Shown piece by piece: positions 21,512 to 58,439 of a stretch of 64,000 nt of DNA (position 1 is its first letter; the number at the start of each line of letters is the position of its first letter). Below the pieces are notes generated by a model. It did no database searches. It had not been told where the DNA came from and was given only the letters and a program-made list of their open reading frames with translations. Made by a program: the position numbers and the translations under genes. Source of the stretch: Heterodontus francisci (lineage: Eukaryota); contig NC_090390.1 of NCBI RefSeq assembly GCF_036365525.1, forward strand, positions 33,849,112 through 33,913,111. Reading direction: 5' to 3'.

Positions 21512-22220
21512 ATGACTGATGATAGGTCATACACCTGAAACGTTGGGAGACAGAGAGGGTACGGAGGAGACAGAAAATAGCCAAAGAACCCAGCAAGGCC
21601 GAGGACATGGAGATACTACTATTCTTATGGGCACTGCCTCATTAATATACTGCATCTGGGCCTGCCCCCCGGCAGCCAGTTGAATAGACAGCCTGGCAGG
21701 CAGGCGGAAGGGAGCATTAGCAACAGGAGGTCATAGCCAGAGTCCTTGAGGATGGCTCCCAGCACCAGGAAAGAAGCTTTGGTTGGCAGTCAGGAGGGAG
21801 TAAGCCTGTACTCGGGAGGGCTGAGGCCGAGTAGGGAGGCTGGAGATCGGGCCTGAAGTTTTAAAAGAACCACTTACATTGGGGGATTCTTGATTCAAAT
21901 GCCAGGAATTACAAAGATTGGGCCTCCCCCTCACTTTCTGTTGAATTTAAATAGTTGCTCGGATTATGTCAGCAGGCCGTGACTTTGTGTGGTAGTTAGA
22001 GGCCCGGCTGCTTTTTGCAGGAGTCTCAGCCATTTCCTGAATTATTTACTTCAAAATTAAAATGGGTGGAAATTGGGTCAGGTCGGAGTCAGATTGTCCA
22101 ATCCTGATAGTTTAGCCCACCCCCACCCTCTCCCCAGGGTGGAGTGAGGATAAAATCTATCAACTCTGTCCCTCTTTCCACAGATGCTGAATGTTTTCCT
22201 TGGAATTACTGTTTTTATTG
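21512..22220 (+). mobile_element. PLE terminal fragment with a hammerhead motif split by a ~610-bp MITE-like insert (21545-~22158)
   Basis: CTGATGATAGGTCATACACCTGAAACGTT|GGG...insert...TAAAATCT|ATCAACTCTGTCCCTCTTTCCACAGATGCTG. Confidence 0.7.
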
Positions 22221-22440
22221 GCATAGGAATTATATTTGGCAACATGGGATAAAATGCCTCTGCAAATAGTGCCCCAATTCAGCAAGTAGCAGGAATGGTG
22301 CCCAATTTATTTTGTATTGCTGTGACTGAAGTCATGGCAGAGCTTTTCAGTCCATTGCTCTAACACATACATATGGAATGTAAGTGATGAGCACTATTAA
22401 ACTGAACTAAAGTCTGATAAATGCGAATGATTGAAACATC

Positions 22441-23382
22441 TGTTACAACCGAGGCGGGAGTAATGCCCTGTCAATTCAGTCCCACTACTCCACAGGTTAT
22501 AGCATATTATTAAAATTTTCCCACCTACTGGAAATTAGCCAAATTAAACATTTTAGTAACCAAACCAGTATTCTTTAAACAACAACAAATTAACTATTTA
22601 TTAATAAACTAAATCTTAAACAATATTGAGATAAACCTATGTCTAAAGACTTTATTACTTCTTATTTCTTGATCCTAATGCACACACACATACATTCAAA
22701 AACCAACAGTTAACCAGCTTAAAAATTATGTTTTTTAGGAATAAATAAGTAGCTGGGTTGTGGGTTATAGTCTAGATTGGTGAGGTGTCCCAGAGTAGAA
22801 TAATCAGATGCCACTCAAAGTCTCCAGGCGAATTCGACAAACAGACCCTAAGGGATAGGTATTTAAAGCACTTCAGTTGCAGCAGGCATCACACAGTTCT
22901 TTCAACAAGGAGTATAGCAACAGGTCTATTTGGATTTTAAAATTGGTAATCTTTCAGTAGAAACTTTACTGAGAATTCCAGCAAACACAAACAGACAACA
23001 GAGATTCAGTTCTGAGGCAAAGACCTCTTAGAGTTTGGAAGTGAAAAAAGGAATTTACGACCTCCAAGAATGTTGTTTTACCTGTTTAGGCAATAACACA
23101 ACTTGAATCTCATGAAGATTTTTCTACTGAGATATAGATCACTTCTTCCTTCAGAGCATGCTTCACTGGTATCCAGATCAGACTGGTTTTAGCCAGTCTT
23201 TTTTACACAGTCAAAAGTTACAATACACTATGTAACCTCCTCTCTCTCCTTCTGTTGCCTAAGGAACAGGTGCAGCTGCTGGCACACTGTGCCCCTTAGT
23301 TTTTAAAGGCACACTGTTTTAAAGAGTCTTAAAGGCACACTGTTTTTAAACAGAGGATTAAAAAAAAAACAGTTCCATGACA
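22441..23382. mobile_element. Solo LTR (Gypsy)
   Basis: TGTTACA...CATGACA termini, perfect 4-bp TSD CATC (22437-40, 23383-86), related to the LTR at 6974. Confidence 0.9.
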
Positions 23383-23423
23383 CATCCTAGTGTGATCCTT
23401 ATATCAGCATTATCAATCTGGCT

Positions 23424-26400
23424 ATCTCTGTTACTCTGTTACTTTCTCCAAGATGGCTCCTGGGCTGGAAGCTCCCTAGGAAGCTCCCTTGCTGTTCAAC
23501 TCTATCCATGGCCATCTGCTCCCATCCCTAACGTTTTCTCCCCCAATCTGCCCTCTTAAACTGTTTAAATTCCCCTGGCTCTTTAAATCAGTTCATTTTA
23601 GCCCTATCTAAAAGTTAACAGTTAGTTTAGTGTATGTTACCTGGGCCCACTGCCCTCCCCCAGCCACACCTGCTCTTTGGTTTCTCAATGAAATTGATCC
23701 GGATGAAACTGACGAGAACAGCTGCCGATACTTTAATCTCCGATCCTGCTGTCTTCACAGTCCAGAGTGTCTGCAGCCACGGCATGCGGTAAGTCCATTG
23801 AGGTGAAGAAGGAGCTGCGGGACCCGAGAGAAGTCCTGTGAAAAGGTGCCCCGAACACCCAAAACATCCACGAACGGCCCCCCCGGCCGCAACTTCAAAG
23901 CGCCCGCGGGAGATGGCTCGGAGAGCATCTGCAGCGCACTGTCGGCAATGCTGCATGCCTTTATTTAAACCACTGCAAAAAAAAAACCCTTAACAAATGT
24001 AATCACCTCTAAGTCTGCCAAATGATGCTTCACCTCCCGAAGGACGTGGATGAGCTTTCCGGACGTCGATGGTGGGCACTGAGGAAATGGCTTATTACCT
24101 GCACCAGATTCCACCCCCCCTCCCCCCCCTTTACCCCCCTTCCACCACCCCCCACCCCCGTCCCCTTTCCTGCTCCACCCTCTCAGCTCACCCCCTCACA
24201 ACCCCGTCCCAGCCCGCCCCCCCCTCGCACCATCTTCACCCCGCACCCCCTTCCCCTGCACCCCCCCCCCACCCCCTCCCTCTACCCCTCCCCCTTGCAT
24301 CCCCTCCTCCCACCGGCACCATCCTACACCTGTGTAGGGGCCCCAACAACCCCACTGCCTTGTGGGCGTCTCGGGAGAGACCAAGGCTAAGGGAGTAAAC
24401 CCTAACAGAAAATCCGGAGCGGAACCCCGTAGGCGGTCATGTGTCACCTTTGGCATGTTTCCGGCAGTTCCTGCAGCCATACTGGTGCCAAACGTCGTGT
24501 CCTGCACTCCTTTGGACCCCACCAGAAAGGCCGAGAGGGGGGTTTTGACGACTGGGCAACTCTCAACCTCCATAAATTTGCCCAGGCATGCGCCATGGAG
24601 AGGTCACTCCATAGTTGCCTCACAGCGACTGAAACAACACGGAAGGCAGCAGTTACGGGTTATAAGTCCAGATAAATTGGCGTAGAAACTGGGCGCCACG
24701 GGTTGCCTTTGTCGGTGGGAGAGGTCATTGCACCTCACTGGACAGCTACCGCCCGCCTCAAACCGGGCAGCCCCCGGTAAATAAGGTTCTGTCCCGCCAC
24801 AGTCTGCCTGCTTCAATGGGTGCTTGGAGCTCAGGGTCATTGCCCGAAAGGTGGACTGATACACCGCACCAAACAACATGAAAAAAGGAAAGAAGGTACC
24901 AGCCCTTCGCTTTGCAAGCTGGAATGTCAGAACTATGTGTCCTGGCCTGTCGGAAGACCTTACACAAATCAACGATTCTCGGAAGACCGCCATCATTAAC
25001 AACGAGCTCAGTAGACTCAATGTGGACATTGCAGCACTTCAGGAGACTCGCCTCCCCGCGAGTGGCTCTCTAGCAGAGCAAGACTACACCTTCTTCTGGC
25101 AGGGCAGGGATCCTGAAGAACCAAGACAGCATGGAGTGGGCTTCGCCATCAGAAACTCCTTGCTCAGCATGATAGAGCCTCCCTCAAATGGCTCGGAACG
25201 CATACTGTCCATCCGACTGCTCACCACCTCTGGTCCAGTACACCTACTCAGCATCTATGCTCCAACACTCTGTTCCGCACCTGAAGCTAAAGACCAGTTC
25301 TATGAACAACTCCATAACATCATTAGCAGCATCCCCAACACCGAACACCTATTCCTGCTGGGGGACTTTAATGCCAGGGTTGGGGCCGACCATGACTCAT
25401 GGCCCTCCTGCCTTGGGCGCTATGGCGTTGGAAGGATGAATGAGAACGGGCAGAGACTGCTTGAGTTGTGTACCTATCATAACCTCTGCATCACCAACTC
25501 GTTCTTTCACACTAAACCCTGTCACCAGGTTTCATGGAGGCACCCAAGATCACGTCGTTGGCACCAGCTAGACCTCATTGTCACAAGGCGAGCCGCCTTA
25601 AACAGTGTTCAAATCACACGCAGCTTCCACAGTGCGGACTGCGACACCGACCACTCCCTGGTGTGCAGCAAGGTTAGACTCAGACCAAAGAAGTTGCATC
25701 ATTCCAAGCAGAAGGGCCACCCGCGCATCAACACGAGCAGAATTTCTCACCCACAGCTGTTACAAAAATTTCTAAATTCACTTGTAACAGCCCTTCAAAA
25801 CACTCCCACAGGGGATGCTGAGACCAAGTGGGCCCACATCAGAGACGCCATCTATGAGTCAGCTTTGACCACCTACGGCAAAAGTGCGAAGAGAAATGCA
25901 GACTGGTTTCAATCTCATAATGAAGAGCTGGAACCTGTCATAGCCGCTAAGCGCATTGCACTTTTGAACTACAAGAAAGCCCCCAGCGATTTAACATCCG
26001 CAGCACTTAAAGCAGCCAGAAGTACTGCACAAAGAACAGCTAGGCGTTGCGCAAACGACTACTGGCAACACCTATGCAGTCATATTCAGCTGGCCTCAGA
26101 CACCGGAAACATCAGAGGAATGTATGATGGCATGAAGAGAGCTCTTGGGCCAACCATCAAGAAGATCACCCCCCTCAAGTCTAAATCGGGGGACATAATC
26201 ACTGACCAACGCAAACAGATGGACCGCTGGGTTGAGCACTACCTAGAACTGTACTCCAGGGAGAATGCTGTCACTGAGACTGCCCTCAATGCAGCCCAGC
26301 CTCTACCAGTCATGGATGAGCTGGACATACAGCCAACCAAATCGGAACTCAGTGATGCCATTGATTCCCTAGCCAGCGGAAAAGCCCCTGGGAAGGACAG

Positions 26401-28126
26401 CATTACCCCTGAAATAATCAAGAGTGCCAAGCCTGCTATACTCTCAGCACTACATGAACTGCTATGCCTGTGCTGGGACGAGGGAGCAGTACCCCAGGAC
26501 ATGCGCGATGCCAACATCATCACCCTCTATAAAAACAAAGGTGACCGCGGTGACTGCAACAACTACCGTGGAATCTCCCTGCTCAGCATAGTGGGGAAAG
26601 TCTTTGCTCGAGTCGCTCTGAACAGGCTCCAGAAGCTGGCCGAGCGCGTCTACCCTGAGGCACAGTGTGGCTTTCGTGCAGAGAGATCGACTATTGACAT
26701 GCTGTTCTCCCTTCGTCAGATACAGGAGAAATGCCGTGAACAACAGATGCCCCTCTACATTGCTTTCATTGATCTCACCAAAGCCTTTGACCTCGTCAGC
26801 AGACGTGGTCTCTTCAGACTACTAGAAAAGATCGGATGTCCACCAAAGCTACTAAGTATCATCACCTCATTCCATGACAATATGAAAGGCACAATTCAAC
26901 ATGGTGGCTCCTCATCAGAGCCCTTTCCTATCCTGAGTGGTGTGAAACAGGGCTGTGTTCTCGCACCCACACTTTTTGGGATTTTCTTCTCCCTGCTGCT
27001 TTCACATGCGTTCAAATCCTCTGAAGAAGGAATTTTCCTCCACACAAGATCAGGGGGCAGGTTGTTCAACCTTGCCCGTCTAAGAGCGAAGTCCAAAGTA
27101 CGGAAAGTCCTCATCAGAGAACTCCTCTTTGCTGACGATGCTGCTTTAACATCTCACACTGAAGAATGCCTGCAGAGTCTCATCGACAGGTTTGCGTCTG
27201 CCTGCAATGAATTTGGCCTAACCATCAGCCTCAAGAAAACGAACATCATGGGGCAGGATGTCAGAAATGCTCCATCCATCAATATTGGCGACCACGCTCT
27301 GGAAGTGGTTCAAGAGTTCACCTACCTAGGCTCAACTATCACCAGTAACCTGTCTCTAGATGCAGAAATCAACAAGCGCATGGGTAAGGCTTCCACTGCT
27401 ATGTTCAGACTGGCCAAGAGAGTGTGGGAAAATGGCGCACTGACACGGAACACAAAAGTCCGAGTGTATCAGGCCTGTGACCTCAGTACCTTGCTCTACG
27501 GCAGCGAGGCCTGGACAACGTATGCCAGCCAAGAGCGACGTCTCAATTCATTCCATCTTCGCTGCCTTCGGAGAATACTTGGCATCAGGTGGCAGGACTA
27601 TATCTCCAACACAGAAGTCCTTGAAGCGGCCAACATCCCCAGCTTATACACACTACTGAGTCAGCGGCGCTTGAGATGGCTTGGCCATGTGAGCCGCATG
27701 GAAGATGGCAGGATCCCCAAAGACACATTGTACAGCGAGCTCGCCACTGGTATCAGACCCACCGGCCGTCCATGTCTCCGTTATAAAGACGTCTGCAAAC
27801 GCGACATGAAATCGTGTGACATTGATCACAAGTCGTGGGAGTCAGTTGCCAGCATTCGCCAGAGCTGGCGGGCAGCCATAAAGACAGGGCTAAATTGTGG
27901 CGAGTCGAAGAGACTTAGTAGTTGGCAGGAAAAAAGACAGAGGCGCAAGGGGAGAGCCAACTGTGCAACAGCCCCAACAAACAAATTTCTCTGCAGCACC
28001 TGTGGAAGAGCCTGTCACTCTAGAATTGGCCTTTATAGCCACTCCAGGCGCTGCTTCACAAACCACTGACCACCTCCAGGCGCGTATCCATTGTCTCTCG
28101 AGATAAGGAGGCCCAAAAGAAGAAAG
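23424..28126 (+). mobile_element. Full-length RTE-clade LINE (4703 bp)
   Basis: 12-bp direct repeat ATCAATCTGGCT at 23412-23423 and 28127-28138 (TSD), an intact single ORF, and a short 3' UTR ending in AAAAGAAGAAAG. Confidence 0.9.
24878..28069 (+). CDS. RTE LINE ORF: APE endonuclease, reverse transcriptase and C-terminal zinc finger (1063 aa), intact
   Basis: FASWNVRT, LQETRL, GDFNARVG, SADCDTDH (APE). QCGFR, FIDLTKAFD, GVKQGCVLAP, LLFADD, FTYLGS (RT). CSTCGRACHSRIGLYSH at the C-terminus. Confidence 0.97.
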   Translation: MKKGKKVPALRFASWNVRTMCPGLSEDLTQINDSRKTAIINNELSRLNVDIAALQETRLPASGSLAEQDYTFFWQGRDPEEPRQHGVGFAIRNSLLSMIEPPSNGSERILSIRLLTTSGPVHLLSIYAPTLCSAPEAKDQFYEQLHNIISSIPNTEHLFLLGDFNARVGADHDSWPSCLGRYGVGRMNENGQRLLELCTYHNLCITNSFFHTKPCHQVSWRHPRSRRWHQLDLIVTRRAALNSVQITRSFHSADCDTDHSLVCSKVRLRPKKLHHSKQKGHPRINTSRISHPQLLQKFLNSLVTALQNTPTGDAETKWAHIRDAIYESALTTYGKSAKRNADWFQSHNEELEPVIAAKRIALLNYKKAPSDLTSAALKAARSTAQRTARRCANDYWQHLCSHIQLASDTGNIRGMYDGMKRALGPTIKKITPLKSKSGDIITDQRKQMDRWVEHYLELYSRENAVTETALNAAQPLPVMDELDIQPTKSELSDAIDSLASGKAPGKDSITPEIIKSAKPAILSALHELLCLCWDEGAVPQDMRDANIITLYKNKGDRGDCNNYRGISLLSIVGKVFARVALNRLQKLAERVYPEAQCGFRAERSTIDMLFSLRQIQEKCREQQMPLYIAFIDLTKAFDLVSRRGLFRLLEKIGCPPKLLSIITSFHDNMKGTIQHGGSSSEPFPILSGVKQGCVLAPTLFGIFFSLLLSHAFKSSEEGIFLHTRSGGRLFNLARLRAKSKVRKVLIRELLFADDAALTSHTEECLQSLIDRFASACNEFGLTISLKKTNIMGQDVRNAPSINIGDHALEVVQEFTYLGSTITSNLSLDAEINKRMGKASTAMFRLAKRVWENGALTRNTKVRVYQACDLSTLLYGSEAWTTYASQERRLNSFHLRCLRRILGIRWQDYISNTEVLEAANIPSLYTLLSQRRLRWLGHVSRMEDGRIPKDTLYSELATGIRPTGRPCLRYKDVCKRDMKSCDIDHKSWESVASIRQSWRAAIKTGLNCGESKRLSSWQEKRQRRKGRANCATAPTNKFLCSTCGRACHSRIGLYSHSRRCFTNH

Positions 28127-28194
28127 ATCAATCTGGCTGTATACAGCCTGGTTTATATGAAATCAAATTTTTGTTTTGATCCCTAAATCAGCTA

Positions 28195-28718
28195 TTCCAA
28201 CAACATGTTAAACATTCGCTCCCTCCACCACCAGCGCACAGTGGCAGCTGTCTGTACCATCTATAGAAAAAAACAAAGTGCTGGAAATACTCAGCAGGTC
28301 TGGCAGCATCCGTGGAGAGAGAAACAGAATTAAAGTTTCAGGTCTGTCACCTTTCTTCAGAGCTCGTCAAGGTTCCTTCAACAGCACCTTCCAAAGCTGT
28401 GACCTATACCACCTAGAAGAACAAGGGCAGCAGATGAATGGGAACCCCACCACCTGCAAGTTCCCCTTTAACTCACACATCATCCTGATTTGAAACTATA
28501 TCATCGTTCCTTCATTGCCGCTGGGTCAAAATCCTGGAACTCCCTCCCTAACAGCACTGTGAGATTATTTATACCACATGGGCTGTAGTGGTTCAAGAAT
28601 GTGGCTCACCACCACATTCTCAACGGCAATTAGGCATGGGCAACAAATGCTGGCCTTTGCCAGCGACACCCACAACGCCGACCCCCCACACCCCCATCCC
28701 CTAAATGAATAAATAAAA
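28195..28718 (+). mobile_element. CR1/L2-group 3' fragment with an inserted PLE piece (~28268-28363) carrying a degenerate hammerhead motif on the minus strand
   Basis: Same family as 16110-17945 (AACATTC.CTCCCTCCACCAC..CCTGGAACTCCCTCCCTAACAGCACTGTG). The minus strand reads CTGAAGAAAGGTGACAGACCTGAAACTTTAATTC. Confidence 0.75.
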
Positions 28719-29249
28719 AGCTAATCTGTAGTCATATGTCAATTTACATTGTCTTTAAGAATTTTATCTGATTAAAAAATGCTGCTATGCTGCATCTCTG
28801 TGTGGTTACCATTCATTGAGTTTTCTTTCAGATAAATCATCAAATTGGCTAATCCAATAGTTGGTATATCTGACTTACACAAGAAACTATCACCATGGCC
28901 CCAATATTAACTTTGAGTTATGTTGGAAGCTGATGGTCATAGTGGTTGGGGGTGGGGGGGGAGGGGGGAACAGGAGGTCCAAAATCAGGCAGGAGACTCA
29001 GAATGATTTTCAGCACATCTGTCTCTGCTATTTTAATGCAGCTGCCTAACTACCATTCTGCTTTTGGGTTTGGCTTTGAATGCGCGACAGTGGACCTACA
29101 TGATGCAAATTCAACTCCAGTATTTAATGGGACAAGAAGCTTTGGCAAAGAAATATTCACACTGTGAATGTGATGCCCACTTTAGCAACAACTCAGAATA
29201 GGCTAGATCCGTTCTTTCCTGCAGACTCTTGCCCTTTTTGCCGCAGATC

Positions 29250-30849: not shown

Positions 30850-31892
30850 AAAAACTAGGTATGCTGTAGCAAAGGTCTACAGACAGAGTATGAGCTACCT
30901 CCAACTGTCGGAGCGGCAGTGTCGCCAAAGCTTGTGCCTCTCCCGAGAGACTGTCACAAACCTTTGTGCCATTGGTGACAGATGACCTGAACCCCAATGA
31001 TGTTGGTGGTCATCCGATGCCAGTGGCGGTGAAGTTCACTATGGCCATTAACTTCTAGGCCTTCGGTTCTTTCCAGGGAGCCACTGGAGAGATGTGTGGC
31101 ATCTCCCAATCAGCAGTACATCATTGCATCAAGATAGTGACTGATGCTCTCTTCAAGAGGGCCAGTCAATACATACATTATCGCACTGATCCAGACAGTC
31201 AGTCTGAGAGAGCCATAGGATTCGGGGCCTTTGCTGGATTCCCTCAGGTGCAGGGTGTCATCAACTGCATGCATGTGGCCGTCAAGGCTCCCACAGGCCA
31301 GCCATCAGCCTTCATTAACAGAAAGGGCTTCCATTCCCTTAACGTCCAACCAGTCTGTGACCACCACCAACGGATCCTGCAGGTGGGTGCATCATACCCT
31401 GGAAACAGCCACGACGTCTACATACTCAGGCACTCCCAGATGCTTGAGCTTTTCACTCCCCCTGAGTGCCTTCAAGGTTGAATTTTTGGTGACAATGGCT
31501 ACCCACTAAAGAGATGGCGACTGACTGCTGTGAGGAACCAAGGACAGAAGCAGAGGAGAAACACAACCTGCCATGCAGCAACCCGAGCCACTATCGGCCA
31601 GGCTTTAGGTCTCCTGAAGATGAAATTTAGATGCCTGGATCGATCCAGTCGTGAGCTTCAATATGCCCCAGTGAGCATCTCACGTATCATGCTGGCATCC
31701 TGCATGCTGCGCAACTTAATGATACAGAGGGTGGAGGCCCTGAACAATGAGGATATAGTGGAGCGCGATGCCGCCTCAGACAAGGAGGATGATGAGGAAG
31801 CTGTTGACCAGCTGCTGCATCCTGAAAGACACCAGGGAGCACATGAAAGGCGTAATGACATAGGCGCTAGGAAGGCTCGGGACACATTTTAG
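30850..31892 (+). pseudogene. Harbinger transposase (HARBI1-like DDE), disrupted
   Basis: YRQ..SYLQLSERQC..LSRETV, CGISQSAVH, VQGVINCMHV (first catalytic D->N), FINRKGFHSLNVQ, YPGNSHD, GDNGYP, LKMKFRCLD, acidic tail. It has stops and frameshifts. Confidence 0.92.
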
Positions 31893-32184
31893 ATGAGCCT
31901 TGCTACCTCATACTTCCAATCAAATACTGATCCACCTTCATCCTGCACTGTTGTCGTTCACCTCAGTTAAAAGAATCTTGTGTACAGTGACACCTTGATC
32001 TTCAGCATGGGCAAAGTGACATCCACACAGCCCTTAGGGCGAGCCCAGGTATTCCTGAGGTTCCAGAGGGCCATCAGTAATGGAAAGAGATGTTGACATA
32101 ATGCAGTACATCTTTATTGAAAACATAAACAGACATAAGCAGTATTTCCTTAACATTGTATTTGCCTGTGAACCCCAAGTACAT

Positions 32185-33636
32185 CTAATGGGTTTTCTTA
32201 TTTCTCCTATGAGTGCTCTTACATGGTGCATCCAGCTGAGGTGGAGACAGGCTGCTGACCCTGCTACCCCATGGCTTGGGATGACCTTGGCAGCCGTCCT
32301 CTGGTTGTCTGAGGCCTGGAGGGCCCCAGCATTCTGGGGCCTCCTGCACAGGTGCAGGAGATTCCTCAGTTGTTGCAGAAACTTGAGGTACTGGTGTTAC
32401 TGGCAGAGGGGCTGAGGAGCCTCTGTTCACACTAGGAGTGTTCTGAGAGGAACCCCCAGATGTGGAAGGCTACTGCTTCTCCTCCCTCACAAGGCACACT
32501 TATACCTCCTTGCTCACCTGAGCAGTCCAGGGACTCGATGGACAATCCAGGCACCTTGTTCTCCCCTCTTGCCTTGCTACTGCTGCACAGAACTCATAGA
32601 AACATAGAAAATAGGAGGAGTAGGCCATTCGGCCCTTTGGGCCTGCTCCGCTATTCAAAATAGATCGTGGCTGATCATCTAATTCAGTACCCTGTTCCCG
32701 CTTTCTCCCCATACCCCCTGATCCCTTTGGCATTAAGAAATATATCGATCTCCTTCTTGAATATATTTAATGACTTGGCCTCCACTGCCTTCTGCGGTAG
32801 AGAATTCCACAGGTTCACACCCTCCGTGAAGAAATTTCTCCTAATCTCGGTTCTAAATGGCATACCCCGTATCCTGAGACTATGACCCCTGGTTTTGGAC
32901 TCCCCAGCCATCGGGAACATCCTCCCTGTATCTAGCCTGCCTAGTCCTGTTAGAATTTTATAGGTTTCTATGAGATCCCCTCTCATTCTTCTAAACTCTA
33001 GTGAATATAGGCCTAGTCGACCCAATCTCTCCTCATATGTCAATCCTGCCATCCCAGGAATCAGCCTAGTAAATCAGGAATCAGACTAGTAAATCTCATG
33101 GACAAGGCAATGGCCTGCAGGTCTGTGTGCATCTCCGGCATCCACTGACTGGACTGCTGGATGTGGCTCTCCAGGAGAGTCACCAAACTCTTGACAGAGG
33201 AGGCTACGCAGACAGATAAGAGGGAAGTGGCAGCACTCGTGGCCTGGATGGACTCTTTTCTTGACCAAGCCAGGGTGTGCATACTGTCTGGAATCTCTGC
33301 CAGATCTTCACGCACCTCACACAGAATGTCCAGCATCTGCGGCAATACTGGTGACTCCAGAGGCACATCATCAGCTTCAGGCTCACATCATCCAGACCTC
33401 ACTCACTCTTCCAATGTCAATGGCCTCAGCTGTCACAATCTCCGACAGCTGCTCAGGCGCATTTGTGGTGCTCTCACCTGGTTGTGACCCCGAATCTAAG
33501 CGTGAATGGATACCCACCAATGTGAGAGTATATGCATTGGTGGAAGATGCACGGGAATGATGTGACAATGCACCTTCTGAGGTCTCCTCCTCCTCCTTAG
33601 AGGTGGACATGGCAGCTCACTGTTCTTATTGTTGAC
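32185..33636 (-). pseudogene. Last exon of the Harbinger accessory (Myb/SANT-type) gene, interrupted by CR1
   Basis: Splice acceptor CTCTCACACAG at 33637-33647, then an acidic/Ser-rich stretch followed by coiled-coil-like sequence (QMLDILCEVREDLAEIPDSM) and a basic tail (KSTHRRNKKTH*). Convergent with the transposase. Confidence 0.65.
32598..33093 (-). mobile_element. CR1 3' fragment
   Basis: MAGLTYEERLGRLGLYSLEFRRMRGDLIETYKIL..NLWNSLPQ, with a likely TSD CTCAT. Confidence 0.93.
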
Positions 33637-39700: not shown

Positions 39701-42700
39701 GGCCTGTGGCTCCAGTCAAGCCTGTGGCTACAGTCAGGGCAGTGGGTCCAGTCAAGCCTCTGGCTCCAGTCAGGGCAGTGGCTCCAGTCAGGCCTGTGGC
39801 TCCAATCAAGCCTGTGGCTCCAGTCAGGGCAGTGGCTCCAGTCAGGCCTGTGGCTCCAGTCAGGGCAGTGGCTCCAGTCAGGCCTGTGGCTCCAGTCAGG
39901 GCGGTGGCTCCTGTCAGGACGGTGGCTCCAGTCAAGCCTGTGGCTCCAGTCAGGGCAGTGGCTCCAGTCAAGCCTGTGGCTCCAGTCAGGGCAGTGGGTC
40001 CAGTCAAGGCAGTGGCTCCAGTAAGGGCAGTGGCTCCAGTCAGGGCAGTGACTCCCGTCAGGCCTGTGGCTCCAGTCAGGTCAGTGGCTCCAGTCAGGTC
40101 AGTGGCTCCAGTCAAGGCAGTGGCTCCAGTCAAGCCTGTGGCTCCTGTCAGGGCAGTGGCTCCAGTCAGGTCAGTGGCTCCAGTCAGGGTAGTGGCTCCA
40201 GTCAAGGCAGTGGCTCCAGTCAGGTCAGTGGCTCCAGTCAAGGCAGTGGCTCCAGTCAGGACTGTGGCTCCAGTCAAGGCAGTGGCTCCAGTCAGGGCAG
40301 TGGCTCCAGTCAGGACTGTGGCTCCAGTCAGGACTGTGGCTCCAGTCAAGGCAGTGGCTCCAGTCAGGGAAGTGACTCCAGTCAGTGCAGTGACTCCAGT
40401 CAGGACTGTGGCTCCAGTCAAGGCAGTGGCTCCAGTCAAGGCAGTGGCTCCAGTCAGGGAAGTGACTCCAGTCAAGGCAGTGGCTCCAGTCAGGGCAGTG
40501 GCTCCAGTCACGCCCGTGGCTCCAGTCAGGGCAGTGGCTCCAGTCAGGCCTGTGGCTTCAGTCAGGGCAGTGGCTCCAGTCAGGCCTGTGACTCCAGTCA
40601 GGGCAGTGGCTCCAGTCAGGCCTGTGGCTTCAGTCAGGGCAGTGACTCCCGTCAGGGCAGTGGCTCGCGTCAGGCCTGTGGCTCCCATCAGGGCAGTGGC
40701 TCCCATCAGGCCAGTGGCTCCAGTCAGGGCAGTGGCTCCTTTCAGGGCAATGGCTCCAGTCAGAGCAGTGGCTCCAGTCAAGGTAGTGGCTCCAGTCAGG
40801 GCAGTGGCTCCAGTCAAGGCAGTGGCTCCAGTCAGGGCAGTGGCTCGCGTCAGGCCTGTGGCTCCCATCAGGGCAGTGGCTCCCATCACGCCCGTGGCTC
40901 CAGTCAGGGCAGTGGCTCCAGTCAAGCCTGTGGCTCCAGTCAGGCCTGTGGCTCCAGTCAGGGCAGTGACTCCCGTCAGGCCTGTGGCTCCAGTCAGGGC
41001 AGTGACTCCCGTCAGGCCTGTGGCTCCCATCAGGGCAGTGGCTCCAGTCAGGCCTGTGGCTGCAGTCAGGGCAGTGGCTCCAGTCAGGCCTGTGGCTCCA
41101 GTCAGGCCTGTGGCTCCAGTCAGGGCAGTGGCTCCCGTCAGACCTGTGGCTCCCATCAGGGCAGTGGCTCCAGTCAAGCCTGTGGCTCCAGTCAGGATTG
41201 TGGCTCCAGTCAGGATTGTGGCTCCAGTCAAGCCTGTGGCTCCAGTCAGGGCAGTGGCTCCAGTCAGGCCAGTGCCTCCAGTCAAGCCTGTGGATCCAGT
41301 CAGGGCAGTGGCTCCAGTCAAGGCAGTGGCTCCAGTCAGGGCATTGGCTCCGGTCAGGGCAGTGACTCCCGTCAGGCCTGTGGTTCCAGTCAGGTCAGTG
41401 GCTTCAGTCATGGCAGTGACTCCCGTCAGAGCAGTGGCTCCCGTCAGAGCAGTGGCTCCCATCAGGGCAGTGGCTCCAGTCAGGCCTGTGGCTCCAGTGA
41501 GCCTGCGGCTCCAGTCAGGCATGTGGCTCCAGTCAGGGCCGTGTCTCTAGTCAGGCCTGTGGCTCCAGTCAGAGCAGTGACTCCCATCAGAGCAGTGGCT
41601 CCCGTCAGGCCTGTCGCTCCCATCAGGGCAGTCGCTCCAGTCAGTACAGTGGCTCCAGTCAGGCCTGTGGCTCCAGTCAGGGCAGTGGCTCCAGTCAGGC
41701 CTGTGGCTCCAGTGAGGGCAGTGGCTCCTGTCAGGCCTGTGGCTCCCGTCAAGCCTGTGGCCCCAGTCAGGGCAGTGGGTCCAGTCAGGGCAGTGGCTCC
41801 AGTCAGGCCTGTGGCTCCAGTCAGGGCAGTGGCTCCAGTCAGGGCAGTGGCTCCAGTCAGGCCAGTGCCTCCAGTCAAGCCTGTGGATCCAGTCAGGGCA
41901 GTGGCTCCAGTCAAGGCAGTGGCTCCAGTCAGGGCATTGGCTCCAGTCAGGGCAGTGACTCCCGTCAGGCCTGTGGTTCCAGTCAGGTCAGTGGCTTCAG
42001 TCATGGCAGTGACTCCCGTCAGAGCAGTGGCTCCCGTCAGAGCAGTGGCTCCCATCAGGGCAGTGGCTCCAGTCAGGCCTGTGGCTCCAGTCAGGCATGC
42101 GGCTCCAGTCAGGGCAGTGGCTCCAGTCAGGCCTGTGGCTCCAGTGAGCCTGCGGCTCCAGTCAGGCATGTGGCTCCAGTCAGGGCCGTGTCTCTAGTCA
42201 GGCCTGTGGCTCCAGTCAGAGCAGTGACTCCCATCAGAGCAGTGGCTCCCGTCAGGCCTGTCGCTCCCATCAGGGCAGTCGCTCCAGTCAGTACAGTGGC
42301 TCCAGTCAGGCCTGTGGCTCCAGTCAGGGCAGTGGCTCCAGTCAGGCCTGTGGCTCCAGTGAGGGCAGTGGCTCCTGTCAGGCCTGTGGCTCCCGTCAAG
42401 CCTGTGGCCCCAGTCAGGGCAGTGGGTCCAGTCAGGGCAGTGGCTCCAGTCAGGCCTGTGGCTCCAGTCAGGGCAGTGGCTCCAGTCAGGGCAGTGGCTC
42501 CAGTCAGGCCTGTGGCTCCAGTCAGGGCAGTGACTCCAGTCAGGCCAGTGGCTCCAGTCAGGGCAGTGGCTCCAGTCAGGGCAGTGGCTCCAGTCAGGCC
42601 AGTGGCTCCAGTCAGGGCAATGTCTCCAGTCAGCGTAATGACTCCAGTCAGGGTAATGGCTCCTTTCATGGCAATGGCTCCAGTCAGGGTAATGGCTCCA

Positions 42701-45700
42701 GTCAGAGTAATGGCTCCAGTCAGGTTAATGGCTCCTTTCAGGGCAATGGCTCCAGTCAGGGTAATGGCTCCAGTCAGAGTAATGGCTCCAGTCAGGTTAA
42801 TGGCTCCTTTCAGAGTAATGGCTCCAGTCAGAGTAATGGCTCCAGTCAGGTTAATGGCTCCTTTCAGAGTAATGGCTCCAGTCAGAGTAATGGCTCCAGT
42901 CAGGTTAATGGCTCCTGTCAGGGCAATGGCTCCAGTCAGAGTAATGGCTCCAGTCAGGTTAATGGCTCCTGTCAGAGTAATGGCTCCAGTCAGAGTAATG
43001 GCTCCAGTCAGGTTAATGGCTCCTTTCAGAGTAATGGCTCCAGTCAGAGTAATGGCTCCAGTCAGGGTAATGGCTCCTTTCAGGACAATGGCTCCAGTCA
43101 GGTTAATGGCTCCTGTCAGAGTAATGGCTCCAGTCAGAGTAATGGCTCCAGTCAGGGCAATGGCTCCAGTCAGAGTAATGGCTCCAGTCAGGGCAATGGC
43201 TCCAGTCAGAGTAATGGCTCCAGTCAGGTTAATGGCTCCAGTCAGAGTAATGGCTCCAGTCAGAGTAATGGCTCCAGTCAGCATAATAGCTCCAGTCAGA
43301 GTAATGGCTCCAGTCAGGGTAATGGCTCCTTTCAGGGCAATGGCTCCATTCAGAGTAATGCCTCCAGTCAGGGTAATGGCTCCATTCAGAGTAATGGCTC
43401 CAGTCAGAGTAATGGCTCCAGTCAGGGTAATGGCTCCAGTCAGAGTAATGGCTCCAGTCAGGGTAATGGCTCCAGTCAGGGTAATGGCTCCTTTCAGGGC
43501 AATGGTTCCATTCAGAGTAATGGCTCCAGTCAGGGTAATGGCTCCAGTCAGAGTAATGGCTCCTTTCAGAGTAATGGCGCCTTTCAGAGTAATGGCTCCA
43601 GTCAGATTAATGGCGCCAGTCAGAGTAATGGCTCCTTTCTGGGTCATGGCTCCAGTCAGAGTAATGGCTCCAGTCAGAGCAATGGCTCCAGTCAGGGCAA
43701 TGGCTCCAGTCAGGGCAATGGCTCCAGTCAGGGTAATGGCTCCAGTCAGAGTAATGGCTCCAGTCAGGGGAATGGCTCCAGTCAGGGTAATGGCTCCAGT
43801 CAGAGTGTTGGCTCCAGTCAGAGTAATGGCTCCAGTCAGGGGAATGGCTCCAGTCAGGGTAATGGCTCCAGTCAGAGCAATGGCTCCAGTCAGGGCAATG
43901 GCTCCAGTCAGGGTAATGGCTCCAGTCAGAGTGTTGGCTCCAGTCAGGGGAATGGCTCCAGTCAGGGTAATGGCTCCAGTCAGAGCAATGGCTCCAGTCA
44001 GGGTCATGGCTCCAGTCAGAGTGTTGGCTCCAGTCAGGGTAATGGCTCCAGTCAGAGCAATGGCTCCAGTCAGGGCAATGGCTCCAGTCAGGGTAATGGC
44101 TCCAGTCAGAGTGTTGGCTCCAGTCAGGGGAATGGCTCCAGTCAGGGTAATGGCTCCAGTCAGGGCAATGGCTCCAGTCAGGGTAATGGCTCCAGTCAGA
44201 GTGTTGGCTCCAGTCAGAGCAATGGCTCCAGTCAGGGCAATGGCTCCAGTCAGGGTCATGGCTCCAGTCAGAGTGTTGGCTCCAGTCAGGGCAATGGCTC
44301 CAGTCAGGGGAATGGCTCCAGTCAGGGGAATGGCTCCAGTCAGGGGAATGGCTCCAGTCAGAGCAATGGCTCCAGTCAGGGCAATGGCTCCAGTCAGGGT
44401 AATGGCTCCAGTCAGGGCAATGGCTCCAGTCAGGGTAATGGCTCCAGTCAGGGTAATGGCTCCAGTCAGAGTAATGGCTCCAGTCAGATTAATGGCTCCA
44501 GTCAGGGCAATGGCTCCCGTCAGGGTAATGGCTCCAGTCAGATTAATGGCTCCAGTCAGAGTAATGGCTCCAGTCAGAGTAATGGCTCCAGTCAGATTAA
44601 TGGCTCCAGTCAGGGCAATGGCTCCAGTCAGGGTAATGGCTCCAGTCAGGGCAATGGCTCCCGTCAGGGTAATGGCTCCAGTCAGATTAATGGCTCCAGT
44701 CAGGGCAATGGCTCCAGTCAGAGTAATGGCTCCAGTCAGAGTAATGGCTCCAGTCAAGGTATTGGCTCCAGTCAGGGGAATGGCTCCAGTCAGGGTAATG
44801 GCTCCAGTCAGGGCAATGGCTCCCATCAGGGCAATGGCTCCAGTCAGGGGAATGGCTCCAGTCAGGGGAATGGCTCCAGTCAGAGCAATGGCTCCAGTCA
44901 GGGCAATGGCTCCAGTCAGGGTAATGGCTCCAGTCAGAGTGTTGGCTCCAGTCAGGGCAATGGCTCCAGTCAGGGTAATGGCTCCAGTCAGATTAATGGC
45001 TCCAGTCAGAGTAATGGCTCCAGTCAAGGTAATGGCTCCAGTCAGGGTAATGGCTCCAGTCAGGGTAATGGCTCCAGTCAGATTAATGGCTCCAGTCAGA
45101 GTAATGGCTCCAGTCAAGGTATTGGCTCCAGTCAGGGTAATGGCTCCAGTCAGGGTAATGGCTCCAGTCAGATTAATGGCTCCAGTCAGGGCAATGGCTC
45201 CCATCAGGGTAATGGCTCCAGTCAGAGCAATGGCTCCAGTCAGGGCAATGGCTCCAGTCAGGGTAATGGCTCCAGTCAGAGTGTTGGCTCCAGTCAGGGC
45301 AATGGCTCCAGTCAGGGTAATGGCTCCAGTCAGGGGAATGGCTCCAGTCAGGGTAATGGCTCCAGTCAGAGTAATGGCTCCAGTCAGGGCAATGGCTCCA
45401 GTCAGGGCAATGGCTCCAGTCAGGGTAATGGCTCCAGTCAGAGTGTTGGCTCCAGTCAGGGCAATGGCTCCAGTCAGGGTAATGGCTCCAGTCAGGGGAA
45501 TGGCTCCAGTCAGGGTAATGGCTCCAGTCAGAGTAATGGCTCCAGTCAGATTAATGGCTCCAGTCAGAGTAATGGCTCCAGTCAAGGTATTGGCTCCAGT
45601 CAGGGGAATGGCTCCAGTCAGGGTAATGGCTCCAGTCAGAGTAATGGCTCCAGTCAGATTAATGGCTCCAGTCAGGGCAATGGCTCCCATCAGGGTAATG

Positions 45701-46272
45701 GCTCCAGTCAGGGCAATGGCTCCAGTCAGATTAATGGCTCCAGTCAGGGCAATGGCTCCCGTCAGGGTAATGGCTCCAGTCAGAGTAATGGCTCCAGTCA
45801 GAGTAATGGCTCCAGTCAGGGTATTGGCTCCAGTCAGGGTAATGGCTCCAGTCAGAGTAATGGCTCCAGTCAGATTAATGGCTCCAGTCAGGGCAATGGC
45901 TCCCGTCAGGGTAATGGCTCCAGTCAGAGTAATGGCTCCAGTCAGAGTAATGGCTCCAGTCAAGGTATTGGCTCCAGTCAGGGGAATGGCTCCAGTCAGG
46001 GTAATGGCTCCAGTCAGGGTAATGGCTCCAGTCAGAGTAATGGCTCCAGTCAGAGTAATGGCTCCAGTCAAGGTATTGGCTCCCATCAGGGTAATGGCTC
46101 CAGTCAGGGTAATGGCTCCAGTCAGAGTAATGGCTCCAGTCAGATTAATGGCTCCAGTCAGGGTAATGGCTCCCATCAGGGTAATGGCTCCAGTCAGAGT
46201 AATGGCTCCAGTCAAGGTATTGACTCCAGTCAGAGTAATGGCTCCTTTCGGGGCAATGACTCCAGTCAGGGG
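33713..46272. repeat. 18-bp minisatellite, ~12.6 kb (~700 units), consensus GTGGCTCCAGTCAGGGCA (left domain) / ATGGCTCCAGTCAGGGTA (right domain)
   Basis: Directly visible tandem array with variant units and higher-order duplications. Confidence 0.99.
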
Positions 46273-46299
46273 CACCAGATATCTTCCGAGCGCTGCAAG

Positions 46300-46361
46300 C
46301 CCTTTAAATATGGTGCCAACAGCTCCAGCAGCGACACCTGAAAGTTAATTGGCTAGCCAAT
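46300..46361 (-). promoter_or_regulatory. Putative promoter of the Harbinger accessory gene (TATA-like box plus double CCAAT)
   Basis: Minus-strand GGCACCATATTTAAAGG (TATTTAAA at 46303-46310) and palindromic ATTGGCTAGCCAAT at 46348-46361. A similar GGCACCATTTTTAAAG occurs in the MITE at 9581. Confidence 0.45.
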
Positions 46362-46462
46362 GCAAGATTGCGTTCCATTGGGGGATCAATTTGCACGCAG
46401 TAGCAGCACCCGCTTCTGGTCCCAGTGGTGGAACCTTGGGCCTACCCATAAAATTTCAGCCC

Positions 46463-47100
46463 ATAACGTTCGATCAAAAGTGATGTGTGCTGACCGAAAC
46501 TGCTTCAGCAACTTCAGAAGGAGAACTTCAAGGTGAGTCTTTGGCACTTGCTACTGTTTGCCAAGACCATTAACGCAATTCCCCTACGTCTCATTTTGAG
46601 CAGCTTTTATGAATTTGGCATGAATATCATCCATGCCAGCTGCCCTAGCTACTCTAGTGTGGAGTGGACCTCTTCCCATGAAACTGGTTCATTAAGGCCT
46701 CTATTTGTGCAGCATGCTCCATTAGCTTTTCCAACCGCTGTGCAGATGGATCCTTGCTATGGTCTGTTGGTCAGATGCCAAATCAGTATAATGCTTTCTC
46801 AATACCCTAATGTTGCCCTCATGGGTTTGCTGGAGAAAACTGGGCTGGCACTAACTCAAATGAACCGTTCTGACCATGACTTCTAGCAGAGACATTAACC
46901 AACAGAAAGTGATGCTGGCTTCATGACAAAGGATGATTGCCAACTCACAATGGCTGATGACCTCTGTGTTACAAGTGATCAGTCCAAGGTGCATAACAAC
47001 TCTCCTTCCTTTTCAGGTTACCATACCAGAGGGCGTTTAGTGAATGGATGGCTAGCAAGCTAATCACTACCACATCACCTGCCATCAAGACCATCCCAGC
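46463..47100 (-). pseudogene. Old non-LTR retrotransposon remnant (upstream half, pre-RT region)
   Basis: LNEPVSWEEV..L...AAGMDDIHAKFIK resembles the conserved K(A/S)PG.D.I..E..K block that precedes NYRGIS. Confidence 0.55.
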
Positions 47101-47103
47101 AAA

Positions 47104-48300
47104 AGCAAAAGGGAAGTTCTGCGGCAGGGTGAAAGGCAGGAGAGATTTAATGAACAGCAGAATACTGCGGATAATGGAAATCTGGAATATAAACAGAAAT
47201 GCTGTAAATATTCAGCAGGCCAGGCAGCGTCTGAGGAGAGAGAAACAGAGTTAACAGGTAGGATTTTATCCTGCCCTTGGAGACGGAAATGGAGGTGGGG
47301 GGGCCAAAGAAAATGGCAAGGGGTGTTGTGTCTGACGGTGTCCTGGCCGCCTGCCATTTTGTCTGTGGTGGGGAAAGCCAAGGTTAGCCTTCCCACCCCA
47401 GGCCAATTGAGGCCCTTATGTGACCAATTAATGGCCGATAAAGCGCCTCTTCTCACCTTCGCTCCAATTTTATGGATTACAGAGGGGCCTGTTGCCGCAT
47501 GGAGACACTGCCAGGTAAAGCCACATGGAGACACTGCCAGGTAAAGCCTGGCAGTCTCCTAGCAAACTCGGTGGGGTGGGCTGCGGGGGGGCATCTATCT
47601 TTTGAGGTCAATCCATGGCCACCGGGGCTCCCCCGGTGGCAATGGCCACACCCCTGGCCAGAGCCCCCTCCCACTCTCACCATAGAATTGCAACAGGAGT
47701 CCAACGAAGGGAAGAGGAAGGGTCTCCCCCCACCCCGCACCCCCCCCGCGCCACCCCCCCCCCCCAACCACCTGGCCTGCCGCTGCGACCCCCATCACCA
47801 GAACAAAATCCAACCCAATGTTTCAGGTTGGTGACCTTTAGTCAGAACTGGAAAATGTTATAGATGTAATAGGTTTTGAACAAACACAGAGGCAGGGAAA
47901 GAGGGAGCAAAAGGGAAGGTCTGCGGCAGTGTGAAAGGCAGGAGAGATTTAATGAACAGCAGAATCATTACCAGCACCAGCTGTCTGAAAAAATGCAGTA
48001 GTTATGATCGGAAATTGTTAAACACGCTATTTAGTCCAGAATGCTGTAAAGTGCCTAATTGAAAGTTGAGGTGCTGTTCCTTGAGTTTACAATGAGCTTT
48101 ATTGCATCAGTGTAGGAAGCAGAGGACAGAGAGGTCTGAGTGGGAGTGGAGCAGTGTATTAAAATGGCAAGTGACCGGATGCTCAGGATGACCATCCAAT
48201 CTGCATTTGGTCTCCCCATTGTATAGGAGACACATCGTGGACAGTGATTACAATATGCAAAATTGAAGGAAGTATGTGTAAATCACTATTTCCCCTGGAC
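47104..48300 (-). mobile_element. Penelope-like element fragment (pLTR plus GIY-YIG remnant), split by a MITE
   Basis: PLE terminal sequence at 47160-47255 and 47817-47965. Minus-strand FTHTSFNFAYCNHCPRC..Y..G at ~48200-48290 resembles the PLE GIY-YIG (N.VY.I.C..C...YIGET). Confidence 0.7.
47256..47816. mobile_element. Harbinger-type MITE in the PLE hammerhead
   Basis: TIRs AGGTAGGATTTT / AAAATCCAACCC and TSD AAC(47253-55)/AAT(47817-19, CpG decay). It contains a tandem CATGGAGACACTGCCAGGTAAAGC duplication. Confidence 0.85.
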
Positions 48301-48364
48301 AGACCACATCCCAGGATGCAGGGTTGCCGATATCCTTCTTGTGGCTTAGCGTCCTTAATTATGA

Positions 48365-48712
48365 GAGTTTCGATGGAGTAAATAAATAGAAACTGTTTTC
48401 ACTGCAGAAGGGTTGGTAACCAGTGGACACAGAATTAAGAAAGAACTGCAGGGGGTGGGGGAGTGGGGATAGGAGGAGAATTTATTTTACACAACAAGTT
48501 GTTATGATCTGGAATGCACTGCCTGGAAGGGTGGTGGAAGCAGATTCAATAGTAACTTCCAAAAGGGGATTGATAAATAGCTGAAAAGGAAAACATTGCT
48601 TGGCTAGGGGGAAAGAACAGGGTGATGGAACTAATTGGATAGTTCTTACACTGAGCTGGCACAGCCACAATGGGCCAAATGGCTTTCTTCTGTGCTATAA
48701 GATTCAATGATT
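48365..48712 (+). mobile_element. CR1 3' end, old
   Basis: GTTATGATCTGGAATGCACTGCCTG..TGGGCCAAATGGC..TGTGCT. Confidence 0.75.
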
Positions 48713-49271
48713 TAAATTGTTTGTCTAATTAAGTTAATTTCATGACATATTCTAAGTTAAATCACTTTTTGCAGTTGAACAGGCATATTTATTGCAATAA
48801 GCATTGCAGTTTGGGAACAATTTCCGACTGATTATTGGGAAATCACGTGTCACTACAATCCTGACCAGTTTCCTCTCATCACTGCAAACAACTCCTTTTC
48901 AGCATTTAACAAAAAGTGGTGATTGAAGCAAAATGTTCCTTGATTCATTTATCTCTGGCTACACAATAGCAATCAATGTGATTTCACTTACTCTGGTAAT
49001 GCAGTGCAGGCAACTCTCATAGTTTGAACTGTTAGAGAATGCTGGTTATTTAACCTTTTAATTGCATATCCAGATTTTTTTTTTGACCATCTCCTTTTGC
49101 CTTGCACCATTATCCCTTTCAGCATTTAATTTCTCCTGCCTTCCACCCTATCACAGACCTTCCCTTTTCTTCTTAACCCCCTCTCCCTTTCTCTGCCTCT
49201 GTACTTGCTTAAACCCTACTACATCTCTGACTTTTACCAGTTCTGATGAAAAGTCATTAACCTAAAACATT

Positions 49272-51013
49272 GGTCAGAATTTTATCAAAAGGCAAGTTGT
49301 CCGGCCACCGGGACTGAAAGTGGGTCCCAAGCCAACATGGATGGATGGCGGGACCCTGGGTGGCATTTTACGAGTGCCAGCCAGTTAAGAGGCTGCTGTC
49401 GGGACAGCTGTCCAATTGAGGATGGCGGTGTGTCTCTCAGAGCTGCTGGCCCAATCATAGGGCCGGCAGCCTTGGCAACTCCATCTGCAGGAAGAACAAG
49501 GGGGTGCCTCTTGAGGTGCCCTTGAAAGCCAGGTAAGATTTTTTTACTGTGTCAGGCCCAGGCAGGCAGGCCCCAGAGATTGGAGTGGTGCACCCTCCAG
49601 GGTGGCAGTGGAGCCGAGAGGGTGGCCATTGCCGCCGGGTGGCTCCTCCATAGGTCATAGAGCAGACTGCCAGGGTTTACTTTGCGGTCTCTACAAGTGG
49701 TTGTGGCCCCTCCCGATGCTGGTAAAATACCAGTGGAGGCATGAAGTGGACATTAATTGGCTTTGTTACAGACAGGTGGTAAGCGATGTGAGTTGACTTC
49801 CACTCCTCATTTCTCAACTGACCACAATTGTGTTTTGTTAAAAATGTGTATTAGTCTATGCATTTTAGGGTCAGAAAAACAGACAAACAACAAGTTTTCT
49901 TGTAGGTTAAAAAAAGAAGATAACTATTTATATTTTTAAAACATTTCCCGAAATGGTCACAACCTTCACCCACTCACACATACATTCACAAGAATAGATA
50001 AAGAGAAAATGGTAGGATGAAATTTTAAAGTTCAAAGTGTATAAGAGTTTGTGGTTTACAGAATATTATTGAGTCTTCTCGGGAGGAAAAGTCTTTTTTA
50101 AAGGTGCAGGCCTGGTTGTTTGCAGTCTTGAACTTGCTGAGGTGTCGTAGAGCTCTAGTGGTTAAAACTCAGCCCAATGTTGGTGGTGTGCATTTGGTTT
50201 ACCTTCACAGATGGAGAGTCTCAAAGTCACTTTGTACTTTCGCTGCTGTAGTGGTAGTTCAGTTCTTGTTCAGCAGGGTTTTCTGCTTGGCTGCATCTCT
50301 CTGTAGCCTCTGGCTGTAAACTGGCTTTTTTGGCTTGATCTCTCTCTCTCTCTCTCCAGCAGGTTACCTTTTAAGGTCAAAATCTATCACCTCTGTTGGG
50401 TGACACATGGTCCTCTCCCCTGGCGTGACCACAAAATGGACCAGGATATAGAAAGCATGGCTATCTATTGATATCTGAATGGGGACTATTCTGTTATAAT
50501 GATGCTACTTCACACCTATTCATTTTGGTTTGGACTGTGAGTCAGTCTGTCTCCAGAACCTTTTGTTAGTTAATTCATGTATAGAGGAGTCATCAATATG
50601 CAATCGTGCTCCTTTCAATTTCAATGGATTCTCCCCAGAGCTATTCAGACACAGTTAATGAATTTTGTCTTTATAAACGGGTTTGTTGATTTCCAGTAAA
50701 GGGGGTGGGGGTCACGTGACCATCACTCTATTTTGACTGTGGTACACGTGTCTATGTTCTTGTGGTTTAGTTTAACAGTTGACTTTTTATTTTCATAATT
50801 CCTCTAATTCATTGTCCATTTCATCATGGCTCCTTCCGTGCATGACACCCTATTAATCGGTTTAATTGCTCGCTACCATTCCCACCATTGATAATATCCC
50901 ATGGCCACGGGATGACATCAGGCCCCCATCCCCTCCTCCAATTCCTTCTACCATTATTGTACGACACCTACCACCTCCCAGCCTGTCTCTAAAGGGCTGG
51001 TAAAATCAAGCCC
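49272..51013. mobile_element. Harbinger-type MITE carrying a solo LTR
   Basis: TIRs GGTCAGAATTTTA / TAAAATCAAGCCC and degenerate TSD ATT/CTT (ancestral GTT). Internal similarity to 10255-10992. Confidence 0.8.
49764..50847. mobile_element. Solo LTR (Gypsy-like)
   Basis: TGTTACA...CATGACA termini as at 22441-23382. It interrupts the MITE's TTAATTGG palindrome, and the TSD is degenerate. Confidence 0.7.
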
Positions 51014-51659
51014 CTTAACTCTGTTTCTCTCTTCACAGATGCTACCTGAACTGCTGAGCATTTCCATCATTTTCTACTTTTATTCCAATTTTGTTCTGAA
51101 ATTAATCATATTTCCAGAACACTCCCTTTAGAACACAGTTAATTTTCTGAATTGTTAAAGGTCCTGAGTTTGCCTATTTATCAATCAGTCGCACCATTAT
51201 TTGGAGGTGTGCTGAATTAGCAAACCCCCTAGGATAACATCTGTGTCTATTTTAATGTACTCTATGATTGAAATAAGAACAAAAAGCAGCAAATGGCTCA
51301 GAAAATGCTGATCCGATAAACCCGATAAAAAGGCAATGATTTTAGACAATAGATTGCTGCTATATATGTTGTAGATACTATACTCTCATTCAAATTAATT
51401 GTGTGGTACAATAGTGCTCATTTATAAAAAATACCTTTGTATTCATTGCTGTAATTTAAAAAGAAAAAATAGGCTTTACTGCTATTTCCCGCCCACCAAA
51501 AATGGAGAGGAATGTTATAAAACTGGCAGGGGTTTTTCCATTCTCTCTTACTTTCTTACAGCTTTCTGTCTCTATCCAAAAGTCTGCTTCACCCTCCCTG
51601 AAGGCAAGGCGGTCAATGGTGGAATGATTAAAATGAAAGAGGAGCACAGAGGTCTTGGA

Positions 51660-58430: not shown

Positions 58431-58439
58431 TTTTTAAAG

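Follow-up and report, generated by a model that had tools for sequence, protein, structure and literature searches.

Why should DNA transposons of the Harbinger type repeatedly interrupt the predicted hammerhead ribozyme of a retroelement at one and the same triplet? The question is raised by a 64,000-nucleotide stretch of the Heterodontus francisci genome (assembly GCF_036365525.1, contig NC_090390.1, positions 33,849,112 to 33,913,111; hereafter the window, numbered from its first base), in which the 3' termini of Penelope-like elements (PLEs) are split at a GTT by inserts of other families. The initial annotation of this DNA proposed that the conserved GAAAC of the ribozyme is the preferred target of the inserting elements and offers them a safe harbour. 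As we show here, the Harbinger insertion hotspot at the PLE GTT is real; it very probably reflects a chance match between the hammerhead core and the ordinary target of these elements, which would reach it by cut-and-paste transposition.

All five copies of the hammerhead motif initially annotated in the window were found where they had been placed, together with a sixth PLE fragment that retains only a 3' half (21213-21269, minus strand). Two of the five are uninterrupted. The first (4800-5035, plus strand) has its hammerhead core at 4939 and its GTT at 4965-4967, and its relatives run upstream into an open reading frame (ORF) encoding reverse transcriptase (RT) and a GIY-YIG domain; in the second (28261-28364, minus strand, motif at 28360) the triplet is mutated to TTT. 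The remaining three were said to be split at exactly the same GTT, which holds fully for two of them. Insert 2, a Harbinger-type miniature inverted-repeat transposable element (MITE) of 561 bp (47256-47816, no strand assigned, as for the other inserts), lies between the right (47187-47255) and left (47817-47877, with homology extending beyond) halves of a minus-strand PLE repeat and has the target-site duplication (TSD) AAC/AAT. Insert 3 (49272-51013, TSD ATT/CTT) separates the left half (49211-49271, core at 49243) from the right half (51014-51083) of a plus-strand repeat. Both are clean, with ends that resemble terminal inverted repeats (TIRs) and a PLE repeat that continues in register after each. 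Insert 3 (1.74 kb) consists of a MITE of ~650 bp carrying an unrelated repeat of ~1.1 kb at about 49756-50847, which also occurs free-standing at two other loci (L128 and L281). Insert 1 (21545-22161) follows a plus-strand left half (21508-21544, core at 21516) that ends in the GTT, and the same repeat resumes at AACTCTG (22162-22189). It belongs to a dispersed MITE-like family with 42 matches in the genome, but both of its termini are shortened (compared with seven family copies, ~15 nt are missing on the left and the final bases on the right) and no second TSD is present. Insert 1 is thus compatible with insertion at the GTT site, yet is not a clean case. The longest match among the three inserts is 40 nt.

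To place these junctions in context we used the whole 6.0-Gb genome and a 1.4-Mb sample, taken as 140 stretches of 10 kb at even spacing. The single-position peak expected from the initial annotation is present genome-wide. The exact PLE-GTT/element junction occurs 163 times, against none for the control sequence. When the left PLE anchor was allowed a free gap of 0-30 nt before an end of the GGG..ATTTT type, 400 matches were returned, against none in the control, and 80 of the first 100 listed have the gap that corresponds to the GTT, with a minor site 6 nt downstream accounting for five of the same 100. The search from the right side gave 553 matches; among the first 30 listed the gap is exact in 21, and 28 begin with a GTT-like triplet. 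In the evenly spaced sample five of ~82 PLE copies are interrupted, whereas in the window the figure is three of five, for which the binomial probability is 0.001-0.014 at rates of 5-12%. The hotspot, real across the genome, is thus locally over-represented in the window.

The insertions occurred independently, as had been supposed. We compared 25 complete inserts at the GTT site, comprising 11 of 30 loci from each of two locus sets and the three from the window; at the other loci of the two sets a second junction could not be recognised within 1.5 kb. These inserts make up 20 clusters, and of the 300 possible pairs just 16 align over at least 150 nt, at no more than 81% identity, and the aligned members have the same orientation in ten pairs and opposite orientations in six, which together argue for independence. 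Where the two TSD copies were compared they are identical in seven of 11 inserts and differ by one mismatch in four. Among 12 long inserts viewed at 10 kb, four had no recognisable right junction and two had a right flank without a TIR.

The assignment to Harbinger is borne out by the 3-bp TSDs, the short TIRs and an element at the GTT site itself that encodes a transposase and has the same TIRs. This 4,374-bp element (locus L272) is bounded by matching TIRs and a GTT/GTT duplication, and its transposase matches DDE_Tnp_4 (E 3.3e-7; 30.5 bits against a cut-off of 24.8); MITEs at other GTT sites have internal stretches in common with it. The group is abundant, the exact terminal sequence GGGCTGGATTTT occurring 43,976 times in the genome against 178 for its control, with paired ends observed, and the same elements are also found at non-PLE sites with 3-bp TSDs. 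A second ORF with a Myb/SANT-like domain is weakly suggested: the L272 element contains no match, and a relative (L265) matches Myb_DNA-bind_5 at E 0.011, below the cut-off, in one of eight frames scanned. When the surroundings of eight transposase copies in a good state of preservation were searched for TIRs, no flanking pair with a TSD was recovered.

The host repeat is identified as the 3' terminus of a PLE by what lies upstream of it. In the sample it gave 97 profile matches, which have a common 3' end and variable 5' ends. In several longer copies an ORF stops 450-540 nt before the end of the repeat, and at locus L099 (3335-4906) this frame matches RVT_1 (E 5.6e-6) and, C-terminally, GIY-YIG (E 6.1e-4), both slightly below the Pfam cut-offs, in agreement with the initial assignment. 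Read by the scheme for minimal hammerheads (PMC4209133, in the parts available to us), the motif combines the core and one additional A with helix II, GAAAC, GTT and a helix I of 4 bp (AGTT/AACT). In this layout the GTT is the NUH triplet, and so the earlier designation of it as the predicted cleavage triplet stands, as a prediction. The core boxes CUGANGA and GAAA..UH are present with helices I and II, and 49 of the 97 copies are gap-free across the core. Among these 49 the closing pair of helix II is A-T in 14, G-C in 20 and G-T in 11, and core U4 reads C in 20; the youngest PLE subfamily combines this C (20 of 49 copies) with the G-C closing pair. An Rfam scan of the motif returned no hammerhead family at E values up to 10, and the fold of the monomer was unremarkable (z -0.11, with only helix II formed). 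Both results are expected of minimal motifs, which, according to the available parts of PMC4209133, are predicted to work as dimers and show only low activity in vitro. Many PLE termini are also arranged as inverted pairs whose turning point lies at the hammerhead stem-loop or close to it (L034, L037, L057, L069 and L110).

What, then, directs the elements to this triplet? The target preference was derived from 113 unique strong TIR ends, of which 80 came from the sample (the reversed control pattern gave five) and 33 from the first 30 GGGCTGGATTTT loci. Of these ends five, belonging to four elements, map to the PLE site (4.4%; confidence interval (CI) 1.5-10%). The other 108 define a palindromic motif of about YWGASWC-NWN-GWSTCWR with at most 13.8 bits, its strongest position being an A in 81 of the 104 non-PLE ends tabulated, and so the loose palindromic preference with a TGAAAC-like half-site that had been surmised from the window is recovered from sites outside PLEs. 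A matrix trained without PLE sites ranks the PLE GTT top of the 100-nt repeat, at 8.55 bits against 4.75 for the next position, and places 88.9% of the matches expected in the scanned gap range at that triplet, against at least 80% observed. Indeed the G, A, A and C of GAAAC coincide with the best letters of the motif. The site is nevertheless not exceptional, as 353 of 1,397,760 sampled positions score as high. From the matrix, the PLE share of all insertions is predicted to be 1.3-1.6% (bootstrap 0.6-3.6%), or 1.8-3.3% when decay is allowed for and 0.8-1.5% when only the ~35 old copies are counted. MITE ends were also noted in or adjoining short tandem ATAGAGTC/ATAGAATC-type tails (L040, L192 and L200); the site in these tails scores 9.8 bits, above the ribozyme site, and constitutes a further predicted hotspot.

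A control was provided by a non-PLE repeat in which three TIR ends coincide at one site; its upstream frame reads like the endonuclease of a CR1 long interspersed nuclear element (LINE). In this CR1-like repeat (L231-L250) 28 of 42 genome-wide matches lie at one base, and a second subfamily contributes seven of the 42 at one base (both read by eye). Its site scores 9.2 bits, or 8.4 when the three founding ends are left out. With matched anchors and a strict TIR, occupancy is 19 of 3,703 (0.51%) at the CR1-like site and ~194 of 48,814 (0.40%) at the PLE site (Fisher p=0.28). The initial annotation had itself stated that equal occupancy at motif matches outside PLEs would reduce the pattern to motif coincidence, and that is the direction in which this comparison points.

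Several observations weigh against so simple an account. The PLE count of ~194 is an extrapolation to 281 rows from the first 100, of which 69 counted when read by eye. There is a single control site, and because it was chosen for recurring among the ends it is biased towards high occupancy. The observed PLE share of 4.4% exceeds the point predictions, the more so that of 0.8-1.5% for old copies. The matrix also misranks the minor sites, giving gap 23 (4.5%) precedence over gap 21 (1.7%), whereas one and five junctions, respectively, were observed among the 100 listed. Finally, occupancy of PLE copies with the old loop, at ~1.6%, is three times the unadjusted CR1-like value of 0.5%.

It could be argued from these figures that the motif sets the position of insertion while a feature of the PLE terminus, such as the inverted repeat of helix II, methylated CpG or chromatin, adds a two- to threefold boost. 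Such a boost would account for an observed share of 4.4% where 0.8-3.3% is predicted, for the higher occupancy of old-loop copies and for the mispredicted ranks of the minor sites. It should be emphasized, however, that the intervals overlap, the observed CI being 1.5-10%, that raw anchor-matched occupancy is equal at the two sites, that the CR1-like total likewise contains young copies, and that the flanks have decayed by ~11%, which dilutes the matrix. An excess at the PLE site of up to about threefold over equal-scoring DNA is possible, but we regard an additional terminus-specific feature as unlikely. A related proposal is that old PLE hammerhead termini drew Harbingers two- to threefold above equal-scoring DNA, with the catalytic core as a fixed landing pad. 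GAAAC would then be held in place by ribozyme catalysis, so that the retroelement could not mutate away from the target, and the landing pad would hold wherever PLE and Harbinger families coexist. We consider this, too, a rather improbable account of the data.

The age of the insertions bears on these comparisons. The PLE termini form groups that diverge from their own majority sequences by 2.0% (n=22), 3.0% (n=11) and 10.6% (n=16), and filled copies match the majority sequence at 89% identity. The young CCG form appears in three of 100 filled rows listed, and a loop reading ACT appears in nine of 100 such rows, compared with 76 of 100 rows for all CTG copies, again among the rows listed and read by eye, one of the two row sets being drawn from one chromosome end. 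Occupancy is about 1.6% for old-loop copies versus 0.05%. ACT-loop copies retain an identical 17-bp site; that they have been spared is therefore better explained by age than by sequence. That younger PLE subfamilies with the same site have almost never been hit indicates that the Harbinger wave is old. At the CR1-like repeat, empty sites are likewise younger than filled ones (86% versus 73% pairwise identity, at ten and 13 loci). Escape of young PLEs through a change from CTGAAAC to CCGAAAC was considered but can be dismissed as the principal reason: the site score falls by only 0.8 bit, CTG to CCG is half of a swap of A-T to G-C in helix II, and the ACT-loop copies with an unchanged 17-mer are also rarely hit.

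Stronger forms of targeting fare worse. An adaptation of this Harbinger group to the PLE ribozyme, as the safe harbour that it prefers, might seem to follow from hundreds of exact, independent junctions at the predicted cleavage triplet, and this is what the initial annotation had favoured. A transposon dedicated to one target would place most of its copies there, whereas only about 4% of the ends (5 of 113) are at the ribozyme. The other 108 define the same motif, the matrix built from them predicts the peak, and high-scoring positions abound in the sample. Nor is the ribozyme a special safe harbour, the LINE site of similar score being hit equally often. Dedicated targeting of the PLE is excluded by the end share and the non-PLE matrix, and adaptation to the ribozyme, being largely refuted, is very improbable. 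Descent of the junctions from a few amplified PLE-MITE composites, or joining at the RNA level at the ribozyme cut, is scarcely credible, for although the left junction coincides with the predicted point of RNA cleavage and a few neighbouring identical right-junction rows point to local duplications, amplification is ruled out by the diversity of the inserts, including both orientations within a family, and by 3-bp duplications of the kind that a staggered cut in DNA leaves, at PLE and non-PLE sites alike.

A chance match of the motif therefore remains the preferred explanation, and a sequence of events can be proposed on that basis. Harbinger elements would have reached the PLE GTT by cut-and-paste transposition, guided by a general palindromic target preference of ~17 bp, with the transposase and a Myb-like partner probably making a 3-nt staggered cut centred on the target motif. 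In the left half-site the positions that carry most information would be provided by GAAAC, and helix I would serve well as the right half-site; the match between the hammerhead core and the target is presumably fortuitous. Because an inserted element takes the place of the 3' strand of helix I, the predicted motif of that copy would be inactivated. As most interrupted copies are 5'-truncated, the cost to the PLE lineage was likely little. The waves would have followed in the order of old PLEs, Harbingers and then young PLE subfamilies, 2-3% diverged and with the same or nearly the same site; since the young families arose after the Harbinger wave, that wave did not end the PLE lineage.

Other parts of the window document the same transposon group. 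Two of its MITEs occupy non-PLE sites (9368-10176, TSD TGT/TGT, site score 3.6 bits; 10255-10992, TSD AAT/AAT, 7.9 bits; no strand assigned to either). A broken PIF/Harbinger-type transposase (30873-31889, plus strand; Pfam DDE_Tnp_4, E 4.7e-23) is related to the L272 element and forms part of a broken element of autonomous type at 30873-33609, with a second ORF region on the minus strand and another repeat nested from ~32593; its left end was searched for and not found. Beyond it, an array of 18-bp units (33713-46271; 12.5 kb, ~700 copies, ~87% matches) contains long open frames of repeated hexapeptides. The array has the remains of this second Harbinger ORF (33095-33609) on one side and an end that resembles a TIR (46451-46462) on the other, and so may have expanded inside a Harbinger element. 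Elsewhere, at L116 and L117, MITEs lie within or directly beside Harbinger transposase sequence. The window also holds long LINE-like open frames at 24860-28066 (plus strand, 1,069 amino acids) and 55286-58433 (minus strand, 741 and 255 amino acids).

The components of this system have counterparts elsewhere. In the available portions of the published accounts, PIF/Harbinger transposition needs a transposase and a Myb-like protein, produces 3-bp TSDs and uses palindromic targets of 9-15 bp (PMC2836001, PMC3016246), the target of zebrafish Harbinger3_DR being the palindrome AAACACCWGGTCTTT and those of plant PIF and mPing being 9 bp (PMC3016246, PMC2836001). The elements studied here resemble these in their 3-bp TSD, a palindromic preference extending beyond it, short TIRs, DDE_Tnp_4 transposase and Tourist-like MITE derivatives, but their motif is different and looser, and was derived from old genomic copies. 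Among nested insertions in the human genome, DNA transposons (MER1/hAT) use one hotspot in both orientations, as described in the accessible part of the study by Levy, Schwartz and Ast (PMC2836564). The two cases are alike in the fixed position within another element and in the explanation by a target motif; what differs is that a Harbinger inserts here, at what is predicted to be the cleavage triplet of a PLE hammerhead. The host motif agrees with the minimal hammerheads of metazoan PLEs, so far as the consulted sections of Cervera and De la Pena (PMC4209133) describe them, in its 4-bp helix I, the extra nucleotide before helix II, the lack of a helix III loop, a palindromic 15.2-16.2 and a terminal repeat that follows the RT and GIY-YIG ORF and exists mostly as single truncated copies. 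Its helix II is 5 bp long, compared with 7-8 bp in Schistosoma, and transposon insertions into the motif are not mentioned in those sections. No report of Harbinger insertion into a PLE hammerhead was found in the literature searched, the coverage of which was incomplete and left out supplements; the word 'Harbinger' is absent from bioRxiv 10.64898/2026.07.22.740005. Nested one-base hotspots are thus already known, while the pairing of Harbinger with a PLE hammerhead, for which we found no earlier report, is most likely a motif coincidence.

The hotspot accordingly gives no pointer to a new targeting mechanism. It does yield the target motif of a Harbinger/MITE group that is very abundant, having tens of thousands of ends in the genome. 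Annotators of repeats are also cautioned that the splitting of PLE termini and of LINE pieces can be predicted. The pattern of nesting also dates the waves, with old PLEs followed by Harbingers and then by young PLEs. This study shows that one target motif is sufficient by itself to produce hotspots of a single base within other repeats.

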